32,000 bases of DNA from Massilicoli timonensis (GCF_900199515.1 NZ_LT963434.1:1802180-1834179); one strand, 5' to 3'. Counted from the first letter of the stretch, positions 9,065 through 31,963 are shown. Notes: generated from the letters alone by a model not told the origin. Numbers and translations are program-made.

Positions 9065-9478
9065 ATGGAACGGGCGATCATAAAAGATCCTGTGTTTCTC
9101 GCTGTTATCAGTACAGCGGCAACGAAGGAAGATCAGGTCATCGCACAGGATCTGTTAGATACACTAACTGCCAATCAAGCGCGCTGCCTTGGACTGGCGG
9201 CTAATATGATCGGCGCTTCTAAGCGCATCATTGCGTTTTTTGATGATAAAACGCCGGTCTTGATGTATAATCCGATCATCTTAAAAACAAGCGGGAAGCG
9301 ATATGAGAGCGAGGAAGGGTGCCTTTCCTTAACAGGAGTGAGAAAAACACTGCGCTATGAGAAAATAAAAGTGCAGTATGAAGATGTGCATTGGAAAAGG
9401 CGTATCCGATCTTTTCAGGGATTAAGCGCGCAGATCATCCAGCATGAAATCGATCATTGTGATGGGGTGATCATCTAA
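9065..9478 (+). CDS. def: Short peptide-deformylase-family protein (137 aa) with a divergent motif I
   Basis: EGCLSL (motif II) and QHEIDHCDG (motif III) are present. Motif I reads CLGLAANM instead of GxGxAAxQ. ATG 9065 follows the regulator stop by 10 nt. Confidence 0.7.
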   Translation: MERAIIKDPVFLAVISTAATKEDQVIAQDLLDTLTANQARCLGLAANMIGASKRIIAFFDDKTPVLMYNPIILKTSGKRYESEEGCLSLTGVRKTLRYEKIKVQYEDVHWKRRIRSFQGLSAQIIQHEIDHCDGVII

Positions 9479-9552: not shown

Positions 9553-9565
9553 AAATTGGTTTTTT
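9553..9565 (-). promoter_or_regulatory. Copy of the intergenic AAAAAACCAATTT box (minus-strand orientation)
   Basis: The plus strand reads AAATTGGTTTTTT. Its reverse complement matches 13 of 15 nt of the box at 12722-12736 and 17386-17400. Confidence 0.35.
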
Positions 9566-9924: not shown

Positions 9925-11508
9925 ATGAAAAGATATTATAGAAAAATCAAATATTTTATATTATTAGATATCATTTTATATGGAGTGAGTGTTTTGTCCA
10001 CTGCATATATGTCCATATTATTGATCAGATTTATTGATCGAGGCTATCAAAGCGAATTTATAAAAATCATTTTCCTATACGCTTTCGCAATAGGAATCCA
10101 TCTGCTCACTGCTTATCTCTGTAATCTATTGCAGTGGGTATATGGGAATCGTTTTCGTTTGCTTCTATCAGAGGACTATTTTACATCGGTCATTCAGCAG
10201 CAACCGACCGATTTTTACAGTAAACCGGCACAGTATTATACTGAGTTTCATACACAGGATCTAAAGGCGATCGAAGCAGACTACCTGATGCCAATGTTGT
10301 CTATTCTAAAATGTATCATGACCTTGCTGATCAATTTTTTGGTGTTAAAAATATATATACAGGAATGGATCTTGTTTGTTGTCATGTTTTTGGCGCTGGT
10401 CAGTTTGTTGATTCCTAAGATTACCGCAAAAAGTTTAGCTAAGCGCAGAGATCAGGCGATCGAACAAATGAAGAAATTTCAGTTATACAATCAGGACTTA
10501 TTACGAGGCTATAACTGGATCAATAATAGAACAAAAGCAGCCTTTCAGAAAGAAAACCGAAAACAGATAGACGAACAATTAGAAAAAGATTTTCGCTATG
10601 GAAAGTGCAAATCTGCCGCATTGGTAATGAATGCCGGCGCTAATATGATGATTATTTTAGTTGCGATCATTTTAGTCGGTATAGAATTAAAAAACGGCAG
10701 GATGTCTTTTGGCGTAGCCAGTTCACTTATGATGAATATCGCTACATTTGTCGATCCATTTGCGGAAATCACTTATTGTATCAATGCACTTCATACGGCA
10801 AGTACGCTCAAAGACCGCTTTTTACACTTTGTAAATAACCATCAAACACCGCTCATCAAGCAAAAAGCGACAAGCGGGAATCAAATCACGATGGAACACA
10901 TTGATTATCAGATTGGAACCTATCAGCTGAAAATAGAGGAACTGATCTTTGAAAAAGGAAAAAAATATCTCATTGTCGGTGAGAATGGAGCCGGGAAATC
11001 CACTCTATTGAATCTATTAGGCAGCCAATTACTCGATTATGAGGGCAGTGTAAAGATCGATGGAATGGATATCAGAGCAGTGGACTGCACGGATTGGATC
11101 GCTTATTTAAGACAGTCCGATCACTTGTTTTTATCTGATTATGAGAATAATGTTACTTTGTTTAACAGTTATCCGTTACAGGTGAATAAACTGATTTCCA
11201 ATGACAAGATACGGCGAAATAAAAACAGAGAAGGATTAAGCGGCGGCGAACAGAAATTTGTGCTGCTGGATCGTATTTTCAATATGGATCGTGCTTTCAT
11301 TTTATTAGATGAACCATTTGCGGAATTGTCGGAAGAAGCCAAACAAGAATATTATGCGTATTTCATGCAAAAGCCAAATACGATCATCATGATCAGCCAT
11401 GATCGGGTCGATTACAGTCTATTTGATGCCGTTGTGAAAGTAAAGAAAGAAAATAATTGCGCATATGCTTATGCAACGCATCCCTTTCATCAGGATGGAA
11501 CAGTTTGA
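9925..11508 (+). CDS. Fused ABC exporter half-transporter (N-terminal 6-TM-type domain plus C-terminal ATPase)
   Basis: Walker A GENGAGKST, signature LSGGEQ, Walker B ILLDEP and H-loop ISHD in the C-terminal third. The N-terminal 300 aa are hydrophobic. Confidence 0.8.
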   Translation: MKRYYRKIKYFILLDIILYGVSVLSTAYMSILLIRFIDRGYQSEFIKIIFLYAFAIGIHLLTAYLCNLLQWVYGNRFRLLLSEDYFTSVIQQQPTDFYSKPAQYYTEFHTQDLKAIEADYLMPMLSILKCIMTLLINFLVLKIYIQEWILFVVMFLALVSLLIPKITAKSLAKRRDQAIEQMKKFQLYNQDLLRGYNWINNRTKAAFQKENRKQIDEQLEKDFRYGKCKSAALVMNAGANMMIILVAIILVGIELKNGRMSFGVASSLMMNIATFVDPFAEITYCINALHTASTLKDRFLHFVNNHQTPLIKQKATSGNQITMEHIDYQIGTYQLKIEELIFEKGKKYLIVGENGAGKSTLLNLLGSQLLDYEGSVKIDGMDIRAVDCTDWIAYLRQSDHLFLSDYENNVTLFNSYPLQVNKLISNDKIRRNKNREGLSGGEQKFVLLDRIFNMDRAFILLDEPFAELSEEAKQEYYAYFMQKPNTIIMISHDRVDYSLFDAVVKVKKENNCAYAYATHPFHQDGTV

Positions 11509-11665: not shown

Positions 11666-12538
11666 TTATTTTATTTCATTCACTAGTCTGATCGCTTTCG
11701 GTAATACCGTTATCTCGATTCTATCATCCGGGTAAGGCTCTCCGTCCAAATTCATTCCCTGTTTTGACAGAACTTGCAGATGCTCGCATTGAAAGATCGA
11801 ACACTCCTTTAATCGCTGTGGCTTATTGCCAAGCAAGGCAGGACACTTATATAAGATACGCCATCTGGGAAAAGATCGAATCAAGCAAACATCCATTTTT
11901 CCATCATCTAATTTGGCGTCAGGAGTAAAGCAGAAACCGCCGCCGTAAAACTTCGCGTTGTTGCAGGCAAGAAATAAGGCTTTTCCTTGATATACATGCC
12001 TGCCATCGGCAATCAGTTCCACTTCATTGCATGGATAGACAAACACTCTGCGCAAGACCGTTGTCAGGTATGCCAGTTTTCGAGGAATCAGCGACCAGTT
12101 TTCATCATGTACGTGCTTGGCGATATCACTGTCCAGCGCAAAACAAGCGGCGTTGATGCAATAATGATCATTTACTTTCAGCACGTCGATCGCCTTTGCC
12201 TCTTTTGCGAGCGAGTGGCGAAAATGTGCGAGGATATCTTTTCGATCCTTCAACATTCTGGAAAAGTCATTGCCGGTACCACAGGGAATCAGCACTAATT
12301 CATGGGAAGAACCCTGCAATGCGTTGATGACCTCATGCAAAGTGCCGTCGCCTCCGCATATATAAAAGCGGCATGGATCATGGTAAGAAGCGATAATGGC
12401 GTCTGCCTCCGCACTGCCCTTGGTAAGATGAATCGCATAAGGAAGCGCACGTGCACGAAAGGTCGTTTCCATCTCTTTCAATAATTCTTTTAGATTTTTC
12501 TGCTTTGCCATCCGATTGATGATGACCACATGTTTCAT
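11666..12538 (-). CDS. Diacylglycerol-kinase-family lipid kinase (YegS/BmrU/DagK type)
   Basis: 290 aa. GGDGTLHEV and GTGNDF motifs of the DAGK catalytic domain. Confidence 0.8.
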   Translation of the reverse strand: MKHVVIINRMAKQKNLKELLKEMETTFRARALPYAIHLTKGSAEADAIIASYHDPCRFYICGGDGTLHEVINALQGSSHELVLIPCGTGNDFSRMLKDRKDILAHFRHSLAKEAKAIDVLKVNDHYCINAACFALDSDIAKHVHDENWSLIPRKLAYLTTVLRRVFVYPCNEVELIADGRHVYQGKALFLACNNAKFYGGGFCFTPDAKLDDGKMDVCLIRSFPRWRILYKCPALLGNKPQRLKECSIFQCEHLQVLSKQGMNLDGEPYPDDRIEITVLPKAIRLVNEIK

Positions 12539-12671
12539 GTAAATTCCCTTCCTTTGTTATCCTTACTCATTTTACATGATTCAAAACCGATGTGCAATGA
12601 AATGTACGGATTATCTGCTGTTTTATAGGACATCAGATACGCGAACATACGCTATGGCAAAGGAATAAGAG

Positions 12672-12682
12672 AATTGGTTTTT
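12672..12682 (-). promoter_or_regulatory. Copy of the AAAAACCAATT box oriented toward the minus-strand lipid kinase gene
   Basis: The plus strand reads AATTGGTTTTT. It is embedded in the near-palindrome AAGAGAA-TTGGTTT-TTCTCTT (12667-12687). Confidence 0.35.
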
Positions 12683-12721
12683 CTCTTGTCAAAAGTAAAG
12701 TATTTGTTCGTTTTTATAGTT

Positions 12722-12775
12722 AAAAAACCAATTTATGAAAAAGTGTTTACAAGAAACCACTTGATATGCTTAAAT
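12722..12775 (+). promoter_or_regulatory. AAAAAACCAATTTAT box plus an extended -10-like element upstream of the permease/ATPase/secreted-protein operon
   Basis: The 15-mer at 12722-12736 is identical to 17386-17400. TGcTTAAAT at 12767-12775 lies 30 nt downstream. No good -35, as expected for an activator-dependent promoter. Confidence 0.45.
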
Positions 12776-12826
12776 TAGAACAACATTACTATCATATCTT
12801 CATATAAAAAGTGTAGGTGATCGACC

Positions 12827-14890
12827 ATGAAAAAAATTATTTCCGTATTCATCGTATTTATTTCCTTTTTGGTATTTCATATCAGTTTCCAAGAGTATGG
12901 AGAGATTGAATGGCTCAATTTAGAAAATCCGACAAGCAGCATCAGTAAAGCATTAAATCAAACGTCATATCGGGTGGTTCTTACTGATGATGGCAAGGGT
13001 AATCTGCTGGAGGATATCATGGATTTTGCCGATGAGAACGATTTGATCGTGTTCGGTGGAAGAACCGATCAGCATCCGGATTTTACCGATGTTTCCAGCT
13101 ATTATGTATATACAAAAGATTGCCGGATATTTGATGGAACCTTCTTTTTGTACGATGGCAAGCAGATATGTTTTGATGACCATAACGCATACTATACGAC
13201 TAATGTGAATGATGAGCAGGCAACCGGCTATATTGAAACGGTTAATCGTGAATATCTGAAAGCATACGGCGATAAATTTGAGTTTCATTACTTTGATCGT
13301 TTTTTTGAAAAAGGAGAACAGCCGTTTCTGGCAGCGTGGTTTATCACAGCGCATCCGGAGAAATTTATCTATCAGCTCAATCACTCTAATCTGAAACAGT
13401 ATATAAGAGAAGGAGATGAAGCGAGCATTTTTCATTCCGCCGAAAAACCTGCCGCAGTCAATCAACTGATCGTACTGCTGTTGTTTGTATCATTGATCTC
13501 AATGGTATTGCTGTTTCTATGTAAAATCGTGCAGGAACGAAAAGAGATCCTGATCAGGAAAATGCAGGGGATGTCGTCAATTTCCATTTTCATGAGGAAA
13601 TATTTATGGGAATTACTTGCTTTTTTCCTTATTTATATCGTTGTACAGATCATCTGCTTTTATTTCGCTGTCGGCAAGATCACTGCCGCAACGCATGGAC
13701 TGATTGACATACTGCTTCGCTATTTCACGATTTACAGCTGTATGATACTGGTGTTGGCAGTCGTTATGATCTTGTTCATTTGGAATAGGAAAGAGATTTC
13801 TTCCATCAAGCGAAGCAATACGCAAAAGCAGATTCCGATCATCAATATGATCTTAAAAATCGTTGTGATCATACTGATCATAGAACCGTTGATCAGTTTT
13901 ACAAAAACAGGGATACGGCAAGCACAAACCGCTCTCTATATGAATGAGCAGGGGCATGTATTATCCAATTTATTGTTCATCTATGGCTTGAAAGAAAATA
14001 CCGGCAATTTAGGACCGATCATCATAAAGATGAGAGAGTATTTTAATGAAAACGGGGGCTGGTATCAGGATTGGCGAAAATATATTCCGGAGATAAAATA
14101 TCCGTATGTGGTCGTAAATCAGAATTATCTGGAAAACTATGATCTTTATACAACTGACGGCAAGAAACTGGATCTTTCAAAGTTAAAACAAGATCAATTA
14201 TTAGTTCCGGAAAAGTACCAATATCAAGATTTGAGTTACTATGGAATGGAAAACAACAAGGGGTACTATGATGGGGAAATCATCGTTTTGAAGAACGGCT
14301 ATCATATTGATAATCTTGATGTTTATAGCTCTATGAATGGCTTTCTCGGTGCAGATGATCCGATCATCTATGTGAAAACTAAAATGGATTCTGACTGTCA
14401 ATGGAATTATTCGTACATGACGATCTATTTAGACGATGAGCAAAAAAAGGAAAAATTGAATCAGTACCTGCATGAAGTCGGATTAGAGGATGAGGTACTG
14501 TTGGCGACATCGCAGCAGCACTATCAAATAATGAAAGAGAAAGTAAAAGATGATCTGATATCGGTTTTATCCTTGTTTGTTATTTATTTGGTAATCATCT
14601 GCACCTTCTTATATGAAAATATATTTATCTACTTCATTGAGAACAAGACAAAGTTTGCGGTGCGTTATCTGAATGGAAGCAGTTATTGGGAACGACATGG
14701 CGATATGATAAAACTAAATTTAGGTGCATATGCAATACCGCTTTTATACGGATATTTCCGGCTGCATATCGCATTGTTTGACATATTGGCGTTTACTGCA
14801 TTGGCGATGATAGTGGAATTAGCGGCGGCTTACGTGATCATTACGCATTTTGAAAAAAATCGTATCGTGGAAGTGCTGAAAGGAGAGTAG
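12827..14890 (+). CDS. Large integral membrane protein with two FtsX-like permease modules; architecture of the bacteriocin-associated (DUF1430/TIGR01654-type) membrane proteins
   Basis: 687 aa. N-terminal TM, about 190-aa extracytoplasmic domain, TM cluster, second extracytoplasmic domain of about 200 aa, and a C-terminal TM cluster. Paired with a MacB/LolD-type ATPase. AGGTGA RBS. Confidence 0.65.
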   Translation: MKKIISVFIVFISFLVFHISFQEYGEIEWLNLENPTSSISKALNQTSYRVVLTDDGKGNLLEDIMDFADENDLIVFGGRTDQHPDFTDVSSYYVYTKDCRIFDGTFFLYDGKQICFDDHNAYYTTNVNDEQATGYIETVNREYLKAYGDKFEFHYFDRFFEKGEQPFLAAWFITAHPEKFIYQLNHSNLKQYIREGDEASIFHSAEKPAAVNQLIVLLLFVSLISMVLLFLCKIVQERKEILIRKMQGMSSISIFMRKYLWELLAFFLIYIVVQIICFYFAVGKITAATHGLIDILLRYFTIYSCMILVLAVVMILFIWNRKEISSIKRSNTQKQIPIINMILKIVVIILIIEPLISFTKTGIRQAQTALYMNEQGHVLSNLLFIYGLKENTGNLGPIIIKMREYFNENGGWYQDWRKYIPEIKYPYVVVNQNYLENYDLYTTDGKKLDLSKLKQDQLLVPEKYQYQDLSYYGMENNKGYYDGEIIVLKNGYHIDNLDVYSSMNGFLGADDPIIYVKTKMDSDCQWNYSYMTIYLDDEQKKEKLNQYLHEVGLEDEVLLATSQQHYQIMKEKVKDDLISVLSLFVIYLVIICTFLYENIFIYFIENKTKFAVRYLNGSSYWERHGDMIKLNLGAYAIPLLYGYFRLHIALFDILAFTALAMIVELAAAYVIITHFEKNRIVEVLKGE

Positions 14891-14894
14891 AGCG

Positions 14895-15530
14895 ATGGCA
14901 AAAATAATAGAAGTGAAAAAACTGTGCAAAGCGTTTGGCGATCAGCAGGTATTCGAAGATTTTTATGCGGAAGTAGAAGAAAATGAATTTGTGGCGATTG
15001 CGGGGAAATCCGGAAGCGGGAAATCGACATTGTTGAATATGATCGGTTTGTTGGATAAACCAAGCAGCGGAGATATCATCTTATTTGGGGAAAAGAATAT
15101 CAAACCGTTTTCCATGCGCGCCGAAAAAATGTTGAAGCATCACATCGGTTATTTGTTTCAAAACTTTGCCTTAGTGGAAAATGAGAGCGTCTATTACAAC
15201 ATGATGCTGGCGATAGAAAATCAGAAGATCAAAGATAAGAAAACGAAGATTGCGGAAGCGTTAAAGGCAGTCGGTTTAGAAGGGTATGAAAATAAAAAGG
15301 TCTATAAATGTTCGGGAGGGGAACAGCAGCGGATCTCGATTGCACGGCTTTTGATCAAGCCTTGTGATCTGGTCTTGGCAGATGAACCGACGGGAAGCTT
15401 GGATCACGAAAATAAAAAAATCGTGTTTGACTTATTAAAGAACTTACAGAAGTTAGGGAAAACGATCGTGGTCGTTACACATGATGAAGAGATGATTGCG
15501 GTGGCAGATCGGACGATCATGATTTCATAG
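14895..15530 (+). CDS. ABC transporter ATP-binding protein (MacB/LolD/FtsE-like)
   Basis: Walker A GKSGSGKST, signature CSGGEQQR, Walker B LVLADEPTGSLD and H-loop VVTHD. Starts 4 nt after the permease stop. Confidence 0.9.
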   Translation: MAKIIEVKKLCKAFGDQQVFEDFYAEVEENEFVAIAGKSGSGKSTLLNMIGLLDKPSSGDIILFGEKNIKPFSMRAEKMLKHHIGYLFQNFALVENESVYYNMMLAIENQKIKDKKTKIAEALKAVGLEGYENKKVYKCSGGEQQRISIARLLIKPCDLVLADEPTGSLDHENKKIVFDLLKNLQKLGKTIVVVTHDEEMIAVADRTIMIS

Positions 15531-15595
15531 CGGGGATATGATCATATTGTTTCTGTAATATGATGATATAAATTTGGTGAAAGGAGGAAAAGAAA

Positions 15596-15928
15596 ATGAA
15601 GAAAATCACCAAAACAGTTTTATGCAGTATGGCTTTGATAGCCGCATCGGGAGCAACTGTGTTTGCGGATATGAAGAAGATTCCGGATCCGGGCAGCGTG
15701 ACCTTAAAGTATGGAAGAGCCCAGACAATGGATACGCCAAATGGATTTGGAACACAGGGAAAATGTGATGATGTGAAAGATGCGCGTGTAGCCGTGTATG
15801 TGAAAGATACATACAATAATGTAATGGCAGCCGCCACGGTAAAACCGAATGCGACCGGTAGTTGTACGTGGAATGCACCGACCGGCACCCCACATGAACA
15901 TCACGCAGGCTCGGATTTATATAAGTAA
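15596..15928 (+). CDS. Small secreted protein (110-aa precursor, about 85-aa mature, two Cys); candidate Sec-dependent bacteriocin-like product
   Basis: AAAGGAGG RBS. Signal peptide MKKITKTVLCSMALIAASGATVFA|D. Last gene of the permease/ATPase operon. No family recognisable by eye. Confidence 0.6.
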   Translation: MKKITKTVLCSMALIAASGATVFADMKKIPDPGSVTLKYGRAQTMDTPNGFGTQGKCDDVKDARVAVYVKDTYNNVMAAATVKPNATGSCTWNAPTGTPHEHHAGSDLYK

Positions 15929-15956
15929 TAAGCAGCACGCATCGTGATAGGAAATA

Positions 15957-15989
15957 GGAGAAGCGAAGGAAATACGCTTGTCCTTTTCT
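15957..15989 (+). terminator. Probable rho-independent terminator after the secreted-protein gene
   Basis: GGAGAAGCG / CGCTTGTCC stem (1 mismatch), 9-nt loop, TTTTCT. Confidence 0.45.
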
Positions 15990-16092
15990 GCTTATCATGC
16001 GTATTCAATGTGATAGAAATAATTTCAAAAGTAGTGGGAAGATAAAAGAATCTATGGTAAGATAAATACGGTTATTTTAAGAGGGCGGTATT

Positions 16093-17325
16093 ATGGGAAA
16101 TAAAATGAAGACGATGTCACAGCAGGTAAAGGAAGAAATCTATTTGTTGTTGGAAACGTATCGTAAGATCAGCGGAAAAAGCGTAAAAGAATTTACAGCA
16201 AATAATGGGAAGATCGGCTGTTCTGTTACGAGCTATCGCAGAATGGGGCATCAAGGGGTTTCTGATTATCAATATTTAGATTTATTGGACTTTCATCAAA
16301 AAACATATTGCCAAACGATTCCGTTAAACGAACAAGAGCAGCATACTGTCAGGGAGTTACATCAGGCAGTTGTTTTTTATCGTTATGATACCTGCATCGC
16401 TTTGATTGATGAATTGACTGCACAATTAAAATCCAGTCAGGATATACGGGTGTATTTACTGTGGCTGTTTTTGGAAGAGCTAAGAGAATATTTTGAAAGT
16501 ATCAACTATTTAGACGAAGAGCAGATCAGGGCATATCTTAGCATTGCGCATTTATATCCGACAGAAATAAAGGATTTGATAGAGTTTTATTGTGTTTATT
16601 CAGCACAGAAGGTATCACGCTTATTGATGCATGAGATTTATCAAAATACTGAAATAGGATATAGTAAATTTCCGCCAGTTGTTGTGCATGCAATGGCGTA
16701 CGATTTTAATTATGAAGAATTTGAACGCGGGATTATAAAAAGTGCCGGTCTGAAAAAACAGGCAATGGAGACTGACAATCATGTACTGCTGTTTGAATAT
16801 TATGACAGCATGATCACTTACTATATTCAATGTGAACCGGATAAGGTTAAAGATGCATTGATCAGTATGGAAGAACTAATAAATAAGTCTTCTTTTCCAA
16901 ATGCGAAAAAAATCCAATTTTATAACAACGCAGCACATAATTATGTGTTTTTGAATTGTTTTGATCAAGCTCTGTATTATTTTGAACGCTATCTTCATGA
17001 GGCAAGTAAATTAAAATTGTGTTTAGATGGAAATATTTATACCAATATAGTTTTTTGTAAACATATGTGTGATATGCCATATGATATAGATTTAGAAGTA
17101 TTAACAACAAACAAATTTTATAGTTTGGCAGACTATTACTTATATGAATATTTTATGGAACAGTCTTTGCTTGAAACAAGAGATAAGAAAATTCGTTTTA
17201 TCAGAAATAAAATAATCAAGCACTTTAGTAAAGATGATAACTTCACTAAATATATGGTTCGATTAGAATTGATGAGAATAATCGATCAAAGTAAAAATTT
17301 AGATTTGATCCTACAAACGATGTAA
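16093..17325 (+). CDS. Cytoplasmic HTH (XRE-like) plus long helical-repeat (TPR-like) regulator; candidate RRNPP-type peptide receptor (paralog 1)
   Basis: 410 aa with no TM or signal peptide. N-terminal YRKISGKSVKEFT...CSVTSYRRM resembles an XRE HTH. The remainder is rich in Y/L/E/F helical repeats. Collinear similarity to the 29852-31066 product. Followed by a propeptide gene. Confidence 0.65.
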   Translation: MGNKMKTMSQQVKEEIYLLLETYRKISGKSVKEFTANNGKIGCSVTSYRRMGHQGVSDYQYLDLLDFHQKTYCQTIPLNEQEQHTVRELHQAVVFYRYDTCIALIDELTAQLKSSQDIRVYLLWLFLEELREYFESINYLDEEQIRAYLSIAHLYPTEIKDLIEFYCVYSAQKVSRLLMHEIYQNTEIGYSKFPPVVVHAMAYDFNYEEFERGIIKSAGLKKQAMETDNHVLLFEYYDSMITYYIQCEPDKVKDALISMEELINKSSFPNAKKIQFYNNAAHNYVFLNCFDQALYYFERYLHEASKLKLCLDGNIYTNIVFCKHMCDMPYDIDLEVLTTNKFYSLADYYLYEYFMEQSLLETRDKKIRFIRNKIIKHFSKDDNFTKYMVRLELMRIIDQSKNLDLILQTM

Positions 17326-17385
17326 TCATTAGAAAATGTGGTTTTTGCGGAATAAAACATGAGGAAAATTCAATAAAATAAAGGC

Positions 17386-17437
17386 AAAAAACCAATTTAT
17401 AAGAATCTCTTTCTTTTTGTGAGAGATTTGGTAAAAT
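17386..17437 (+). promoter_or_regulatory. AAAAAACCAATTTAT box plus an extended -10 (TGgTAAAAT) upstream of propeptide gene 1
   Basis: The 15-mer at 17386-17400 is identical to 12722-12736. TGGTAAAAT at 17429-17437 lies 28 nt downstream. An inverted partial copy, AGAGATTTGGT, sits at 17422-17432. Confidence 0.5.
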
Positions 17438-17465
17438 CATATCGTTAATAGGGAGGTTGTGTTTA

Positions 17466-17576
17466 ATGAGAAAAATGTTATTAGGTACTTTGATGTTCGT
17501 AATGCTGGCAGCTCTTGCTACACCGGTTTCGGCAGATGAGCCGATGCCTATGGGTACTTGGAACGAAAAAGTATAA
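17466..17576 (+). CDS. Unannotated 36-aa secreted propeptide (candidate quorum-sensing pheromone precursor 1): MRKMLLGTLMFVMLAALATPVSADEPMPMGTWNEKV
   Basis: GGGAGG RBS 9 nt upstream. Canonical Sec signal peptide with a VSA|DE cleavage site. 13-aa exported tail. Terminator immediately after the stop. Located 140 nt downstream of the regulator. Confidence 0.7.
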   Translation: MRKMLLGTLMFVMLAALATPVSADEPMPMGTWNEKV

Positions 17577-17603
17577 GATCATAGAACGCTATGGTCTTTT
17601 TTT
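17577..17603 (+). terminator. Rho-independent terminator after propeptide gene 1
   Basis: GATCATAG / CTATGGTC stem (one G-U pair), AACG loop, T7. Confidence 0.75.
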
Positions 17604-17671
17604 ATTGCCTGCGCTATACATTTTCAGACTTTTGAGATAAAATAATGAAGTTATCAGAAAGGACTGATGGT

Positions 17672-19042
17672 ATGAATAAAAGCCGTATGGAAACAGAGCC
17701 GATCGGGAAATTATTGTTTTCCCTCGCAGTGCCGACGGTATTGGCGCAGTTAGTCAATCTGCTTTATAATATCGTGGATAGAATTTTTGTCGGAAGAATG
17801 GCAGGAGTCGGTGATCTGGCATTGGCAGGTCTGGGCGTCAGTTTCCCGATCATCATGTTGATCAGCGCATTTGCGGCGTTGATCGGGATGGGCGGTGCCC
17901 CAAGAGCCTCTATTCATATGGGAGAGAAGCGCAATGATAAAGCGGAGAAGGTACTGGGGAACTGCGTGAGTGCACTTACGATCTGTGCGATCATACTTAC
18001 GATCGTCTTTTTATGGATCAAAGATCCGATCTTGCTGCTGTTTGGCGCCAGTGAAAAAACGCTGCCTTATGCAAGTGATTATCTGGGCATCTATTTGATC
18101 GGTACGATTTTTGTGCAGTTTGCATTAGGATTAAACATGTTCATCACTTCGCAAGGTTTTGCGAAAACCGGAATGGCGACCGTTTGCATCGGAGCGATCA
18201 TCAATATCATTCTGGATCCGATCTTTATCTTTGTGTTTGATATGGGAGTGCGTGGAGCGGCATTGGCAACGATCTTATCACAGGCGGTATCGGCGCTTTG
18301 GGTTTTGTACTTCCTTGTGGGGAAACGTACGATCTTAAAGATTCGTAAAGAGAATCTGAAATTAGAGCGAACGGTCATGATGCCGGTGCTGGCTTTAGGG
18401 ATTTCGCCTTTTGTCATGCAGGCGACGGAATGTCTGGTGCAATTAACCTTTAATAAAAGCATTGCTTATTATGGAAGCGATCTATATGTTACGATGATGT
18501 CGATCTTATTTTCGGTCATGCAGTTTATTTGGCTGCCGATGCAGGGATTTTCTCAGGGAGCACAGCCGATCCTAAGCTATAATTTCGGCTCGGGCAACTA
18601 TGAACGGGTACGCAAAACTTTTCGCTTGCTGTTTCAGGCGCTGATTGTTTATTCATTGCTTTTGGTCGGCAGTGTCGAGCTGTTTCCGCAGTTCTATATC
18701 GAGTTATTTGCACCTGACAATGCGGCGTTAATGGAGATTGCGGTGCCCGGCATTCGAATCTTTATGTTCGGCATGATGTTTATGGGCGCGCAAAGTGCTT
18801 GCCAGCAAACTTTTCTTGCACTGGGGGAAGCAAAGGTTTCTATGTTTCTGGCGTTTTTGCGCAAGCTGATCTTGCTTTTGCCGCTGATCTTGCTTTTGCC
18901 GCTGTTTGTCAAACCGGGAACGACCGGGGTATTGTTGGCGGAAGCGGTTGCCGATATTTTGGCGGTCAGCGTAACGGTGATCATATTTTCAAAGCGTTTT
19001 CCGCAGATCTTGGCAAAAAAGAGGCAAGAAACAAGTATGTAA
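17672..19042 (+). CDS. MATE-family efflux transporter
   Basis: 12-TM-type protein with the typical N-terminus PIGKLLFSLAVPTVLAQLVNLLYNIVDRIFVG. AAAGGA RBS favours ATG 17672 over 17645. Confidence 0.85.
   Translation: MNKSRMETEPIGKLLFSLAVPTVLAQLVNLLYNIVDRIFVGRMAGVGDLALAGLGVSFPIIMLISAFAALIGMGGAPRASIHMGEKRNDKAEKVLGNCVSALTICAIILTIVFLWIKDPILLLFGASEKTLPYASDYLGIYLIGTIFVQFALGLNMFITSQGFAKTGMATVCIGAIINIILDPIFIFVFDMGVRGAALATILSQAVSALWVLYFLVGKRTILKIRKENLKLERTVMMPVLALGISPFVMQATECLVQLTFNKSIAYYGSDLYVTMMSILFSVMQFIWLPMQGFSQGAQPILSYNFGSGNYERVRKTFRLLFQALIVYSLLLVGSVELFPQFYIELFAPDNAALMEIAVPGIRIFMFGMMFMGAQSACQQTFLALGEAKVSMFLAFLRKLILLLPLILLLPLFVKPGTTGVLLAEAVADILAVSVTVIIFSKRFPQILAKKRQETSM
18866..18901 (+). repeat. 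Perfect 18-bp tandem duplication inside the MATE gene
   Basis: CTGATCTTGCTTTTGCCG occurs twice back to back and in frame, giving LILLLP-LILLLP in the last TM region. Confidence 0.95.
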
Positions 19043-29851: not shown

Positions 29852-31066
29852 GTGCTGTCATTACAGAAAAAAAGAAATCTTTATCATGAATTAGAAATGT
29901 ATCGCCTCTGGCATTGCTGGTCGCAAAATCGTTTTGTTTCAGACATGATATCTTATGCGACGTATGCCAAAATGAAGGAAGCGAATAATCGCATACAGGA
30001 CCAGAGCTACGTTGATTTACTGTCATATTATGGGTTTGACATTGAACATGATCTGGTCTATCACGAAATAAAAGAACAAATCGTATCGCTGCATGATGCT
30101 TTGAGCAGATGTGAATTAGAAAGCAGCAGTGCATTGCTTGAACAATTAGAACATCATTTATCTATACAAAATACCTGTATAGAGAGCATCAATCTGCGAT
30201 TGTTTTTGCATAGACTGTTACAGTATGTAAAGAATGATGTTTATTTGAGTGAAAGCCAAATTGAAGCATTGTTATCTTATTATCAGAATAAGCCAAAACC
30301 ATTGAAGGACCTCATTTTATATTATATGATCTATTCTGCTACTAAGATCAGCTTTACCTATCAGCAATATTTATATGAGAAGATAGAAGCATTACGCGTA
30401 TCGGATTATTTGCCGATCATGGTTCATTATATGGGATATTTGATCAACTGCAAACAATTTCAAAAAGCGTTGTTATTAGGAAACGAAATCTATCAAAAAG
30501 CGCATGAAACAAAAAATCACTATATGCTGTTTGAGTATTATGAGAATATGCTTGCTTATTATATTCGATATGAACCAAATCAAGTAGAGAAAACCCAGAA
30601 ACAGATAGAAGCAATCATGAAGCAAATCCATTTTCCGAGAATCAAAAAGATGCAATACTATCGTAATTATGCCAAACGGTGTATTTCAAAGCATGAATAT
30701 CAAAAGGCTTTAGCCGCATTTCAAGAGATACAAGAATACAGTTTACAAGGGAATGTTCATGATCGTGTGAGCATTATATATAATATCACTTTTTGCGAAA
30801 GCCAACTTCAAATTCCTTATAGCATCGCTTATGATTATGCATTGAAAAAAGAACATTTTGAAAGCAAGGCTGATTATTATTTGTTTCAATATTTACTAAA
30901 GAAGAACGATATGACAAATGCACAACGGGTTCGTTATTTGCATAAGATTGCGAAAGTCATGAAAGATCATGAGGATTATACGAAATTTCAAATAAGGGAA
31001 GAATTATATATGATTAGTATGAAAGATAAAAAGGCAGATCTTTTCCGCTATCTGGAGAATAGATAA
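29852..31066 (+). CDS. HTH (XRE-like) plus helical-repeat regulator; candidate RRNPP-type peptide receptor (paralog 2)
   Basis: GTG start 6 nt after GGGAGGAGG. N-terminal YRLWHCWSQNRFVSDMISYATYAKMKEANNRI resembles an XRE HTH. Blocks shared with paralog 1 include HYMLFEYYENMLAYYIRYEPNQV vs HVLLFEYYDSMITYYIQCEPDKV and LKDLILYYMIYSATKIS vs IKDLIEFYCVYSAQKVS. Confidence 0.65.
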   Translation: MLSLQKKRNLYHELEMYRLWHCWSQNRFVSDMISYATYAKMKEANNRIQDQSYVDLLSYYGFDIEHDLVYHEIKEQIVSLHDALSRCELESSSALLEQLEHHLSIQNTCIESINLRLFLHRLLQYVKNDVYLSESQIEALLSYYQNKPKPLKDLILYYMIYSATKISFTYQQYLYEKIEALRVSDYLPIMVHYMGYLINCKQFQKALLLGNEIYQKAHETKNHYMLFEYYENMLAYYIRYEPNQVEKTQKQIEAIMKQIHFPRIKKMQYYRNYAKRCISKHEYQKALAAFQEIQEYSLQGNVHDRVSIIYNITFCESQLQIPYSIAYDYALKKEHFESKADYYLFQYLLKKNDMTNAQRVRYLHKIAKVMKDHEDYTKFQIREELYMISMKDKKADLFRYLENR

Positions 31067-31194: not shown

Positions 31195-31317
31195 ATGATG
31201 AAAAGAACTAAGATATTATTAAAATTAGCATTGCTTTTCTGCTTGATCGTTTTGACGGCAAATGCAGTAGAAAGCATGCAACCGCGTTCAAGAGAAACGT
31301 GGATAGAAAAAAATTAA
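31195..31317 (+). CDS. Unannotated 40-aa secreted propeptide (candidate pheromone precursor 2): MMKRTKILLKLALLFCLIVLTANAVESMQPRSRETWIEKN
   Basis: Sec signal peptide with an ANA|VES cleavage site. 16-aa tail whose end, ETWIEKN, parallels GTWNEKV of peptide 1. Lies 128 nt after the regulator. The RBS is poor (GGAAAGGAG is 20 nt upstream), which lowers confidence. Confidence 0.55.
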   Translation: MMKRTKILLKLALLFCLIVLTANAVESMQPRSRETWIEKN

Positions 31318-31342
31318 ATCATTTAATGAGAGAGGAGCAAAA

Positions 31343-31963
31343 ATGAAAAAAAAGATATTTATAACGGTATTGTTATGTTTGTTTTCAATTTCACCGATTT
31401 CTTTGCGAGCCAATGAACTTGAAAGAAACACGGTGGAATCAGATCATGAAATTGTAATAGAAAACGTTGATGAATTAAGTGATGCGGAAATTGATAGAAT
31501 CATGAAAAAAGAAACCGAAAAGTATTTAGAGCGTGTTGTTCCGGGTTATGCGGATGAAAAGAAAGTAAGAGCCAGACCGACCTATGAAACGGTCTACGGA
31601 ACAGCCAAAACGGTAACGATTGGCGGATATGCCGGAAATCAGCCGGCAGGAGGCAGAAGATTTAACACAGGAGGAGGCTTTTGGTTCTCTGATAGCGGTG
31701 GACCTACTGCTTCATTAAATGTATCTTTTCCTGCACCTTATGATTTGATCAGTGTTTCCGTTACGCTGGGATCAGTTGGAAGTAGCGGCGTATTTGTACT
31801 AGCTCCTGATACGACCCATTATTTTAAGCTTTATGTTTCCAAAAAAGTTCGTGTACAGCCATATGTCGTATATTATACAAACAGCCAAGGGAAGAAAACC
31901 GTATGGCTTAGAAGTAAAACTACGACAGTAACGAAGGTGGATCAATATGCAAAGCAAGTATAA
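31343..31963 (+). CDS. Secreted protein of unknown function (206-aa precursor), Gly/Ser/Thr-rich beta-type C-terminal domain
   Basis: GAGAGGAG RBS. Signal peptide MKKKIFITVLLCLFSISPISLRA|NE. Begins 25 nt after propeptide gene 2 with no intervening terminator. Confidence 0.65.
   Translation: MKKKIFITVLLCLFSISPISLRANELERNTVESDHEIVIENVDELSDAEIDRIMKKETEKYLERVVPGYADEKKVRARPTYETVYGTAKTVTIGGYAGNQPAGGRRFNTGGGFWFSDSGGPTASLNVSFPAPYDLISVSVTLGSVGSSGVFVLAPDTTHYFKLYVSKKVRVQPYVVYYTNSQGKKTVWLRSKTTTVTKVDQYAKQV

Follow-up and report, generated by a model that had tools for sequence, protein, structure and literature searches.

A candidate lactococcin 972-type cassette in Massilicoli timonensis with a previously undescribed secreted protein family in the toxin position

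What is the purpose of an operon that joins an ATP-binding cassette (ABC) transporter to a small secreted protein of no assigned family? The question is raised by three genes at positions 12827 to 15928 of a 32,000-nucleotide (nt) stretch of Massilicoli timonensis DNA (GCF_900199515.1 NZ_LT963434.1:1802180-1834179). This stretch is hereafter termed the window and all positions are counted in it. An initial inspection, here called the sequence-only reading, had proposed a bacteriocin with its own self-protection module, and the proposal is supported by domain matches, synteny, co-divergence, a transporter-only variant and published precedent. The computational checks that it called for all gave the results it had predicted. 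Judged from the sequence data, the best explanation appears to be a cassette of the lactococcin 972 (Lcn972) type whose toxin position is occupied by a different, previously undescribed family. We favour, with moderate confidence, a quorum-sensing-controlled producer/immunity cassette for a new Sec-dependent, bacteriocin-like family of beta-sandwich proteins confined to Erysipelotrichaceae, a reading in which killing, immunity and induction are inferred.

The three open reading frames (ORFs) that the sequence-only reading had described are present, tightly clustered on the + strand. They encode a 687-residue permease (12827-14890), a 211-residue ABC ATPase (14895-15530) and a small precursor of 110 residues (15596-15928). 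The ATPase gene starts 4 nt past the permease stop codon, and the small-precursor gene has an AGGAGG ribosome-binding site 8 nt upstream. Nothing else is encoded in the operon, neither modification genes nor a dedicated C39 exporter. Gene calls in the window and in L001, a contig of the same species, place no histidine kinase or response regulator beside it.

What kind of transporter is encoded? The permease matches the Pfam domain DUF1430 (PF07242) above threshold, with 41.4 bits at residues 585-686 against a gathering score of 28.2. The match to TIGR01654, 'bacteriocin-associated integral membrane protein', is partial (69 bits, cut-off 189, model positions 400-681 only) and that to FtsX is weak and below threshold (21.2 bits, gathering score 25.5), falling at residues 214-326 in the central transmembrane (TM) cluster. 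Hydropathy places TM1 at residues 4-22, a loop of about 190 residues, four TM segments at 214-363, a second loop of about 210 residues and a C-terminal TM cluster at 577-671. This is the layout of FtsX-like TM clusters split by large extracytoplasmic domains that had been described at the outset, and on this basis the putative immunity component is read as a fused double FtsX-like unit. Among the members of its cluster at 90% identity or above, one is named 'DUF1430 domain-containing protein [Massilicoli timonensis]'. According to the description of the TIGR01654 family, membrane proteins of this sort may also go with other bacteriocins that are as yet uncharacterised; the architecture is thus a known one, and it is the effector family that is new.

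The ATPase leads more directly to Lcn972. Its best NCBIfam model is TIGR03608, 'L_ocin_972_ABC', with 250.8 bits, 4 bits under the curated cut-off of 254.85, and the sequence match suggests a protein that is effectively of this type although the threshold is formally missed. The FtsE (171 bits), LolD (162 bits) and MacB (138 bits) models follow, in keeping with the MacB/LolD-type assignment made earlier. In the reference Lcn972 operon, carried on pBL1, Orf3 and the window ATPase share 42% identity (E 3e-56), and Orf2 shows the same C-terminal DUF1430 match as the window permease; pairwise, Orf2 and the permease are barely alignable.

What, then, is the third protein? Reading of the precursor sequence indicates a Sec signal peptide, residues 1-24 (15596-15667), composed of MKKITK, a hydrophobic core and the junction VFA/D, the slash marking cleavage; there is no lipobox. 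The mature protein, encoded with its stop codon at 15668-15928, has 86 residues, a mass of 9.2 kDa, an isoelectric point (pI) of 8.0, two cysteines and the tail HEHHAGSDLYK. Anchoring motifs are absent, with no LPXTG, lipobox or cell-wall-binding domain.

Neither Pfam nor NCBIfam assigns the protein to a family, and a word-indexed homology search with the single sequence returned its own cluster only. Three other full-length relatives, at about 34% identity, emerged when 1.84 billion representatives were searched exhaustively with HMMER (phmmer), and a profile search extended these to 10 full-length clusters plus two fragments, all lacking Pfam domains and source names. Two records in the largest cluster, which is found on hundreds of contigs, are named 'hypothetical protein [Holdemanella biformis]'. 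The family is restricted to Erysipelotrichaceae (Massilicoli and Holdemanella), with about four clusters at 50% identity among 15 billion proteins. A tblastn search of plasmids with the small protein gave no match.

Alignment and model scans were carried out with 11 family members. The cleavage junction is kept, A24 being invariant and D25 present in 10 of the 11, and the other invariant positions are L37, G40, A42, T53, G55, V67, Y68, W92, H100, H102, A104 and S106. Cysteines number one, two or three per member and occur at differing positions. The sequence-only reading was right on the signal peptide and the two cysteines of the window protein; the cysteine pair does not hold as a family trait, and the 'His-rich tail' that it described is better seen as the conserved motif H-x-H-x-A-(G/A)-S. 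Within the species, variants of the small protein (P0037-P0048) have their changes concentrated just past the cleavage site, at residues 27-28, and in the 89-103 loop (S89T, N93K, T96A, G97D, E101K, H103Q). The protein is elsewhere invariant, with H100, H102 and both cysteines kept.

Some candidate relatives were set aside. The phmmer matches to giant proteins P0003, P0004 and P0008 are scattered over unrelated BACON, fn3 and Big_3_5 repeats and thus carry only a generic immunoglobulin (Ig)-like sandwich signal. Similarity to Big_1 (E 0.0039) was likewise rejected as generic to beta strands. A match of one family member to the NCBIfam model 'JUQZ_fam_ocin' (E 0.04) is not significant, given that 11 proteins were scanned against 18,950 models. 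The possibility that the family is that of mediterrocin was also rejected, the mediterrocin tryptic peptide NGNGSFSGSNVGK, listed in PMC12345188, being absent from the new family and mediterrocin being annotated as a member of the Lcn972 family.

Structure prediction gave a clear result. With the alignment of 11 sequences AlphaFold2 returned an all-beta model of the mature protein with eight strands, a predicted local distance difference test score (pLDDT) of 94.6 and a predicted template modelling score of 0.83. From the precursor as a single sequence the pLDDT was 35, so that the prediction is confident only with the family alignment. The model confidently predicts an eight-stranded Ig-like beta-sandwich. 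A Foldseek search of the PDB and of viral structures (BFVD) gave no match below E 0.008, nothing informative coming from BFVD; the best matches are assorted, unrelated Ig-like sandwich domains with a template modelling score of about 0.5.

Could such a fold serve something other than killing? One alternative is that the protein is a secreted factor with no antibacterial role, in host or surface adhesion, in immunomodulation or as a protein signal, which the transporter releases or senses. The Ig-like fold, the weak Big_1 similarity (E 0.0039) and the gut origin of the organism (PMC6796691) lend this some support, and host effects are reported for some Lcn972-family proteins (Sil, Lmo2776). We nevertheless consider it very improbable. 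The small protein has no anchoring motif, its resemblance to Ig-like repeats is of the generic kind shared with BACON, fn3 and Big_3_5, and the conserved coupling to an ABC pair of the 'immunity' type would be unexpected for a simple adhesin.

Is the association of the three genes maintained elsewhere? Synteny was assessed at loci on 11 contigs, from four genomic contexts other than that of the window (L002/L003, L005/L006, L007, L011, L016, L017 and L019-L021). In all relatives with enough flanking sequence the family gene lies directly upstream of genes for a DUF1430 protein of 676-678 residues and an ABC ATPase of 209-210 residues. This toxin-first arrangement is the canonical Lcn972 order, whereas in the window the transporter genes come first. 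The sequence-only reading had remarked that an immunity-first order is the reverse of that in the lcn972 operon. The remark stands for M. timonensis, to which this order is peculiar, but not for the family, and the order in the relatives implies a local rearrangement in the window rather than a family feature.

At least four unrelated contexts harbour the module: beside uvrB, in an island with integrase, Mob_Pre and Abi_2 genes, beside a C39 ABC exporter, and in the Massilicoli chromosome. Divergence among three lineages is congruent, with identities of about 32% for the small protein, 24-31% for the permease and 60-64% for the ATPase, the last also being the range between the window ATPase and those of related loci. 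Such congruence indicates that the three components evolved as a unit. The relatives carry, in addition, a regulator of about 420 residues near the module wherever the contig covers that flank; a protein of 422-430 residues with helix-turn-helix (HTH_3) and tetratricopeptide repeat (TPR) domains is adjacent in L002-L005, L007, L016, L018, L019 and L021.

A transporter without its small partner is found on L009, a contig from a metagenome-assembled genome (MAG) of Holdemanella sp. (NZ_CAKVMR010000079.1). Permease and ATPase genes occupy L009:1711-4456 and are 96.5% identical to those of L016, L005 and L019. About 14 nt ahead of the permease start the homology breaks off, an unrelated 449-residue membrane protein is encoded upstream, and the contig has neither the small-protein gene nor the regulator. 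The layout matches the 'immunity-only' form of bacteriocin loci such as pneumococcal scbBC (PMC11796350). A scan of the genome collection with the permease alignment gave at least two loci, neither with the family gene beside the permease; one of them is L009.

Three further features of the related loci are recorded here. In two metagenome loci a gene is split into two ORFs, the DUF1430 permease in L020 (849-2877) and the regulator in L021 (2216-3487); the splits could reflect either faulty assembly or a module that is decaying in some strains. Holdemanella small-protein genes (L002:7960-7990, L005:7935-7965, L007:1870-1895) share a conserved palindrome, AAAGAGCTCTTT, placed after the likely -10 element and ahead of the ribosome-binding site; it may be an operator for the HTH_3 plus TPR regulator. 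At L005:6425-6622 a 65-residue ORF with a signal peptide (MKKLITSLLALLCVFGSQPITMYA...), ending exactly at the start of the regulator gene, is a candidate propeptide for that regulator.

The partnership raises a second alternative, namely that the small protein is an extracytoplasmic accessory, capturing or sensing substrate for the DUF1430/ABC machine, and that the transporter is a pump that exports, or gives resistance to, exogenous peptides. A comparable case would be YxeA of Bacillus subtilis, a small secreted protein whose gene follows the BceAB-type yxdLM genes. Strict adjacency and co-divergence fit a stable partnership of this kind as well as they fit a toxin/immunity pair, the window order is transporter first and small protein last, the protein is not strongly cationic, and a generic Ig-like sandwich is a type often used for binding. 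Yet L009 shows the pump kept without the small protein, and the module is mobile, patchy in distribution and placed beside signal-type regulators, as is typical of competition loci. DUF1093/YxeA was not found by Pfam (E<=10) or by the fold search, and no Bce-type two-component system adjoins the operon. Moreover the characterised Sec-secreted neighbours of DUF1430/ABC pairs, Lcn972, streptococcin B and mediterrocin, are all bacteriocins (PMC4055356, PMC11796350, PMC12345188). We regard the accessory role as unlikely and retain the producer/immunity cassette.

Is expression of the cassette under peptide control? Downstream of the small gene lies a gene for a 410-residue orphan cytoplasmic protein (16093-17325, + strand), followed by a 36-residue ORF with a signal peptide (17466-17576, + strand). 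Position and pairing with the propeptide gene make the 410-residue protein a putative peptide receptor/regulator. A paralogue of 404 residues is encoded at 29852-31066 (31% identity, E 4e-50). It has no match in Pfam, NCBIfam or the PDB. The propeptide, MRKMLLGTLMFVMLAALATPVSA/DEPMPMGTWNEKV with the slash again marking cleavage as read from the sequence, occurs in its exact form on 488 contigs, and in L001 a gene is likewise called at this position. The propeptides of the two cassettes end in GTWNEKV and ETWIEKN, respectively, with the common motif (G/E)TW(N/I)EK. Within-species variants of the first carry P28A, N33Y and V36E.

The link to the operon is a DNA element. The 15-nt box AAAAAACCAATTTAT, a putative receptor-binding site, has exact copies at 12722 (12722-12736), before the operon, and at 17386 (17386-17400), before the propeptide gene, both on the + strand; the sequence-only reading had described a shared box ahead of the operon and, next to the operon, a receptor/propeptide cassette, and the box and the adjoining gene pair are both present. 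The 11-nt core AATTGGTTTTT has four exact copies in the window, all intergenic, where 0.12 would be expected, and none of 100 shuffles reached four. Each box belongs to an inverted repeat. In front of the operon the left arm, AATTGGTTTTT at 12672-12682 on the + strand, is 100% complementary to 12723-12733 in the right arm with 40 nt between the arms; in front of the propeptide gene the partner is 35 nt upstream, the repeat pairing 17334-17348 with 17384-17398 (17334-17400 overall, + strand). The box is present in two copies in L001 and is absent from the other 20 loci.

Elements resembling an extended -10 follow both boxes when the sequence is read by eye, TGcTTAAAT 33 nt past the operon box and TGgTAAAAT (17429-17437) 31 nt past the propeptide box. 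For the operon the putative promoter would span 12746-12775 on the + strand, with TTTACA, an 18-nt spacer and TTAAAT, the TG being at 12767-12768. An intrinsic terminator at 17575-17598, a 10-bp stem followed by a T-run immediately past the propeptide gene, is the only terminator-like site on the + strand in 12400-17700. With termination at this point, no target downstream and the same box upstream, the operon is the natural target of the first receptor/propeptide cassette. Within the limits of what sequence can tell, the layout supports peptide-dependent control of the operon.

The 65-nt spacer before the small gene has an element of its own. Two 12-nt near-palindromes of the form ATATGAT(C/G)ATAT, ATATGATCATAT and ATATGATGATAT, lie 22 nt apart and are the only exact matches to the motif in the window. 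They form an intercistronic inverted repeat at 15536-15569 (+ strand) predicted to fold as a hairpin of -13.4 kcal/mol (z = -2.35). It is not a canonical terminator since no T-run follows, and it could be an operator, or an mRNA processing or stability element setting the ratio of toxin to transporter. A hairpin past the small gene was considered as a terminator and rejected, its z of -1.5 being not significant and a T-run being absent.

Several observations weigh against the proposal of a regulated Lcn972-type cassette, and these must be set beside the evidence in its favour. The window small protein is near neutral at pI 8.0, as opposed to the basic Lcn972 and Holdemanella members. The transporter-only variant comes from one MAG contig, L009, whose assembly could be chimeric. 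A generic consensus promoter scan found no more sites than in shuffled sequence, the promoter elements being those read by eye. The 410-residue protein has no match by sequence or profile in Pfam, NCBIfam or the PDB and no recognisable HTH or TPR; hhalign finds no detectable relation to the Holdemanella regulators (probability 0.8%). Finally, the protein in the toxin position shows no detectable similarity to Lcn972. None of the 11 family members matches PF09683 or TIGR01653 of Pfam and NCBIfam at E<=10, hhalign of the family against a pair of Lcn972 sequences gives a probability of 2.2% with only the signal peptides aligned, and the Lcn972 structure 2LGN is absent from the top 50 Foldseek matches.

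This last group of results bears equally on a third alternative, that the small protein is a very divergent Lcn972 member of the same ancestry, with the same beta-sandwich and lipid II target, in an ordinary cluster of shuffled order. The partner genes, a DUF1430 protein and a TIGR03608-like ATPase, are the same. The window protein resembles Lcn972 in its small size, Sec dependence, lack of modification and all-beta structure (that of Lcn972 as given in PMC12345188 and PMC11796350), and in each a Y-G dipeptide comes after the cleavage site. Mediterrocin is only 18% identical to Lcn972 and yet belongs to the family (PMC12345188), which makes the Lcn972 family very divergent. However PF09683 gives 53.6-55.5 bits on two true members, Lcn972 and a Streptococcus salivarius homologue, used as positive controls, and returns no match at E<=10 for any of the 11 sequences from the new family; the NCBIfam models do not match and the hhalign signal is confined to the signal peptide. 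A search of PDB sequences with the family profile did not recover 2LGN, in line with the Foldseek result. Eight strands in 86-94 residues also compare poorly with the 66 residues of mature Lcn972. By every test run, of sequence and of predicted structure, the small protein is not a detectable Lcn972 relative, in line with the sequence-only reading, which had seen no visible match, and we judge common ancestry improbable. The preferred reading remains an Lcn972-type cassette with an effector of another family.

How might the cassette work? The 110-residue precursor would be exported by Sec and cleaved after VFA, and the released 86-residue, roughly 9-kDa Ig-like protein would act on the envelope of competing Bacillota. 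By analogy with Lcn972 orf2-orf3 and with type VII ABC systems, the DUF1430 permease, with its two extracytoplasmic domains of about 200 residues, and the MacB/LolD-like ATPase would protect the producer, likely by using ATP-driven mechanotransmission to remove the secreted protein from its target in the envelope. The 410-residue protein probably binds a processed peptide derived from the 36-residue propeptide and switches expression on. The inverted-repeat box common to both promoters would be the regulatory site, giving autoinduction together with expression of toxin and immunity genes.

A bolder form of the proposal can be put forward only tentatively. It holds that the 86-residue protein founds a family of Sec-dependent Ig-like bacteriocins, marked by an invariant W...H-x-H-x-A-x-S and evolutionarily unrelated to Lcn972, that the DUF1430/ABC pair is a plug-in immunity platform for at least two toxin folds, and that in Massilicoli this platform has been wired to a lineage-specific orphan family of receptor/propeptide pairs with an operator of two half-sites 35-40 nt apart.

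What would follow if these proposals are correct? Unmodified, Sec-secreted protein bacteriocins directed at the cell wall come from few kinds of locus, Lcn972-type loci being among them, and the DUF1430/ABC partners of the latter are mechanistically uncharacterised. With a second toxin family, not detectably related but working with the same partners, recognition of the cognate protein by the transporter could be studied by comparison. Such a family would also supply a new antimicrobial scaffold, and this from commensals that are prevalent in the human gut: the Holdemanella biformis version is present on hundreds of contigs and that of Massilicoli on about 480. Bacteriocin-mining tools would gain a new search model, for a family that goes wholly undetected with the present Pfam and NCBIfam models. 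Through the adjacent orphan receptor/propeptide pairs, peptide quorum sensing would be extended to Erysipelotrichaceae.

Other features of the window deserve mention. A fourth copy of the box core, at 9554-9564, lies between a peptide deformylase gene (ending at 9478) and an exporter gene (9832 or 9925-11508). The copy has the left-arm orientation with no right arm nearby, and it may mark a third target of the same regulator. The exporter, of 527 or 558 residues, has ABC_membrane and ABC_tran domains and its best NCBIfam matches are peptide/bacteriocin exporters. In the second cassette the 404-residue paralogue is followed by a secreted propeptide of about 39 residues (about 31199-31318) ending in ETWIEKN. 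Upstream of this propeptide AAAGTAAACAATTAT bears a loose resemblance to the box of the first cassette. Past the propeptide come a 206-residue secreted orphan (31343-31963), with no Pfam or PADLOC match, and the start of a hydrophobic ORF. The genes that flank the operon are ordinary chromosomal ones, with products such as a YegS-type lipid kinase, a MATE pump, RsmF and proteins for teichoic acid, and a PADLOC scan of the window proteins gave no defence-system match beyond generic ATPase similarity. The GC content of the window, about 42%, disagrees with the 53% (3.1 Mb) of the species description (PMC6796691).

How does the cassette compare with known systems? With type VII ABC transporters (MacB, FtsX and BceAB-like) it shares an ATPase that scores with FtsE, LolD and MacB models and a permease with an FtsX-like TM cluster and large extracytoplasmic domains. 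It differs in that the FtsX match is sub-threshold, the permease is a single fused chain of about eight TM segments with a DUF1430 C-terminal half, and no Bce-type two-component system is found beside the operon. The regulatory genes recall the RRNPP systems with Sec-exported propeptides, PlcR-PapR, NprR-NprX and TprA-PhrA, where the gene for a cytoplasmic protein of about 400 residues precedes, on one strand, a small ORF whose product has a signal peptide and is conserved towards its C-terminus. The window genome has two paralogous pairs of this kind, and an inverted-repeat box stands ahead of both the propeptide gene and the target operon. In contrast to RRNPP receptors, those of the window have no HTH or TPR match in Pfam and no PDB relative, and a search of 5.8 billion proteins gave the 410-residue protein no homologue outside the species. 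The arms of the box are 35-40 nt apart and do not form a compact palindrome, and the Holdemanella relatives use another, recognisable HTH_3 plus TPR regulator.

Lcn972 itself is Sec-dependent and binds lipid II, with orf2-orf3 as putative immunity genes (PMC4055356). The Lactococcus lactis pBL1 operon (lcn972-orf2-orf3; NC_004955.1) and the window operon both encode a small, Sec-secreted, unmodified protein, a protein of about 650-690 residues with a C-terminal DUF1430 domain and an ATPase of about 210 residues. The window cassette is chromosomal, has the transporter first and lies beside a receptor/propeptide pair; its small-protein family is larger (86-94 as against 66 residues), has eight predicted strands and shows no detectable similarity. 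Relatives of the window cassette have the toxin-first order of the pBL1 operon.

Mediterrocin (mdc), from the gut Lachnospiraceae member Mediterraneibacter gnavus, has activity that was shown experimentally (PMC12345188). It is annotated in the Lcn972 family, and activity of the window protein is only inferred. The two loci have in common a human-gut Bacillota host, a Sec-dependent mature protein (89 residues in mediterrocin), DUF1430 (mdcH) and ABC (mdcI) genes, a regulator and mobile elements (PMC12345188).

The nearest parallel for regulation is streptococcin B, whose scbABC genes lie beside a ComR-type regulator and respond to a peptide encoded at the locus, and control by TprA/PhrA is predicted for streptococcin E (PMC11796350). 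ScbA is a true member of the Lactococcin_972 family, a model that the window protein fails. ScbR is a recognisable ComR/Rgg protein and the ScbS peptide is XIP-like with no Sec signal, whereas the window regulator is an orphan of 410 residues and its propeptide has a Sec signal in the style of PlcR-PapR or NprR-NprX. In streptococcin B of S. pneumoniae and S. pseudopneumoniae, as in the window, a cassette of the Lcn972 type adjoins a cytoplasmic regulator and a peptide encoded at the same locus (PMC11796350).

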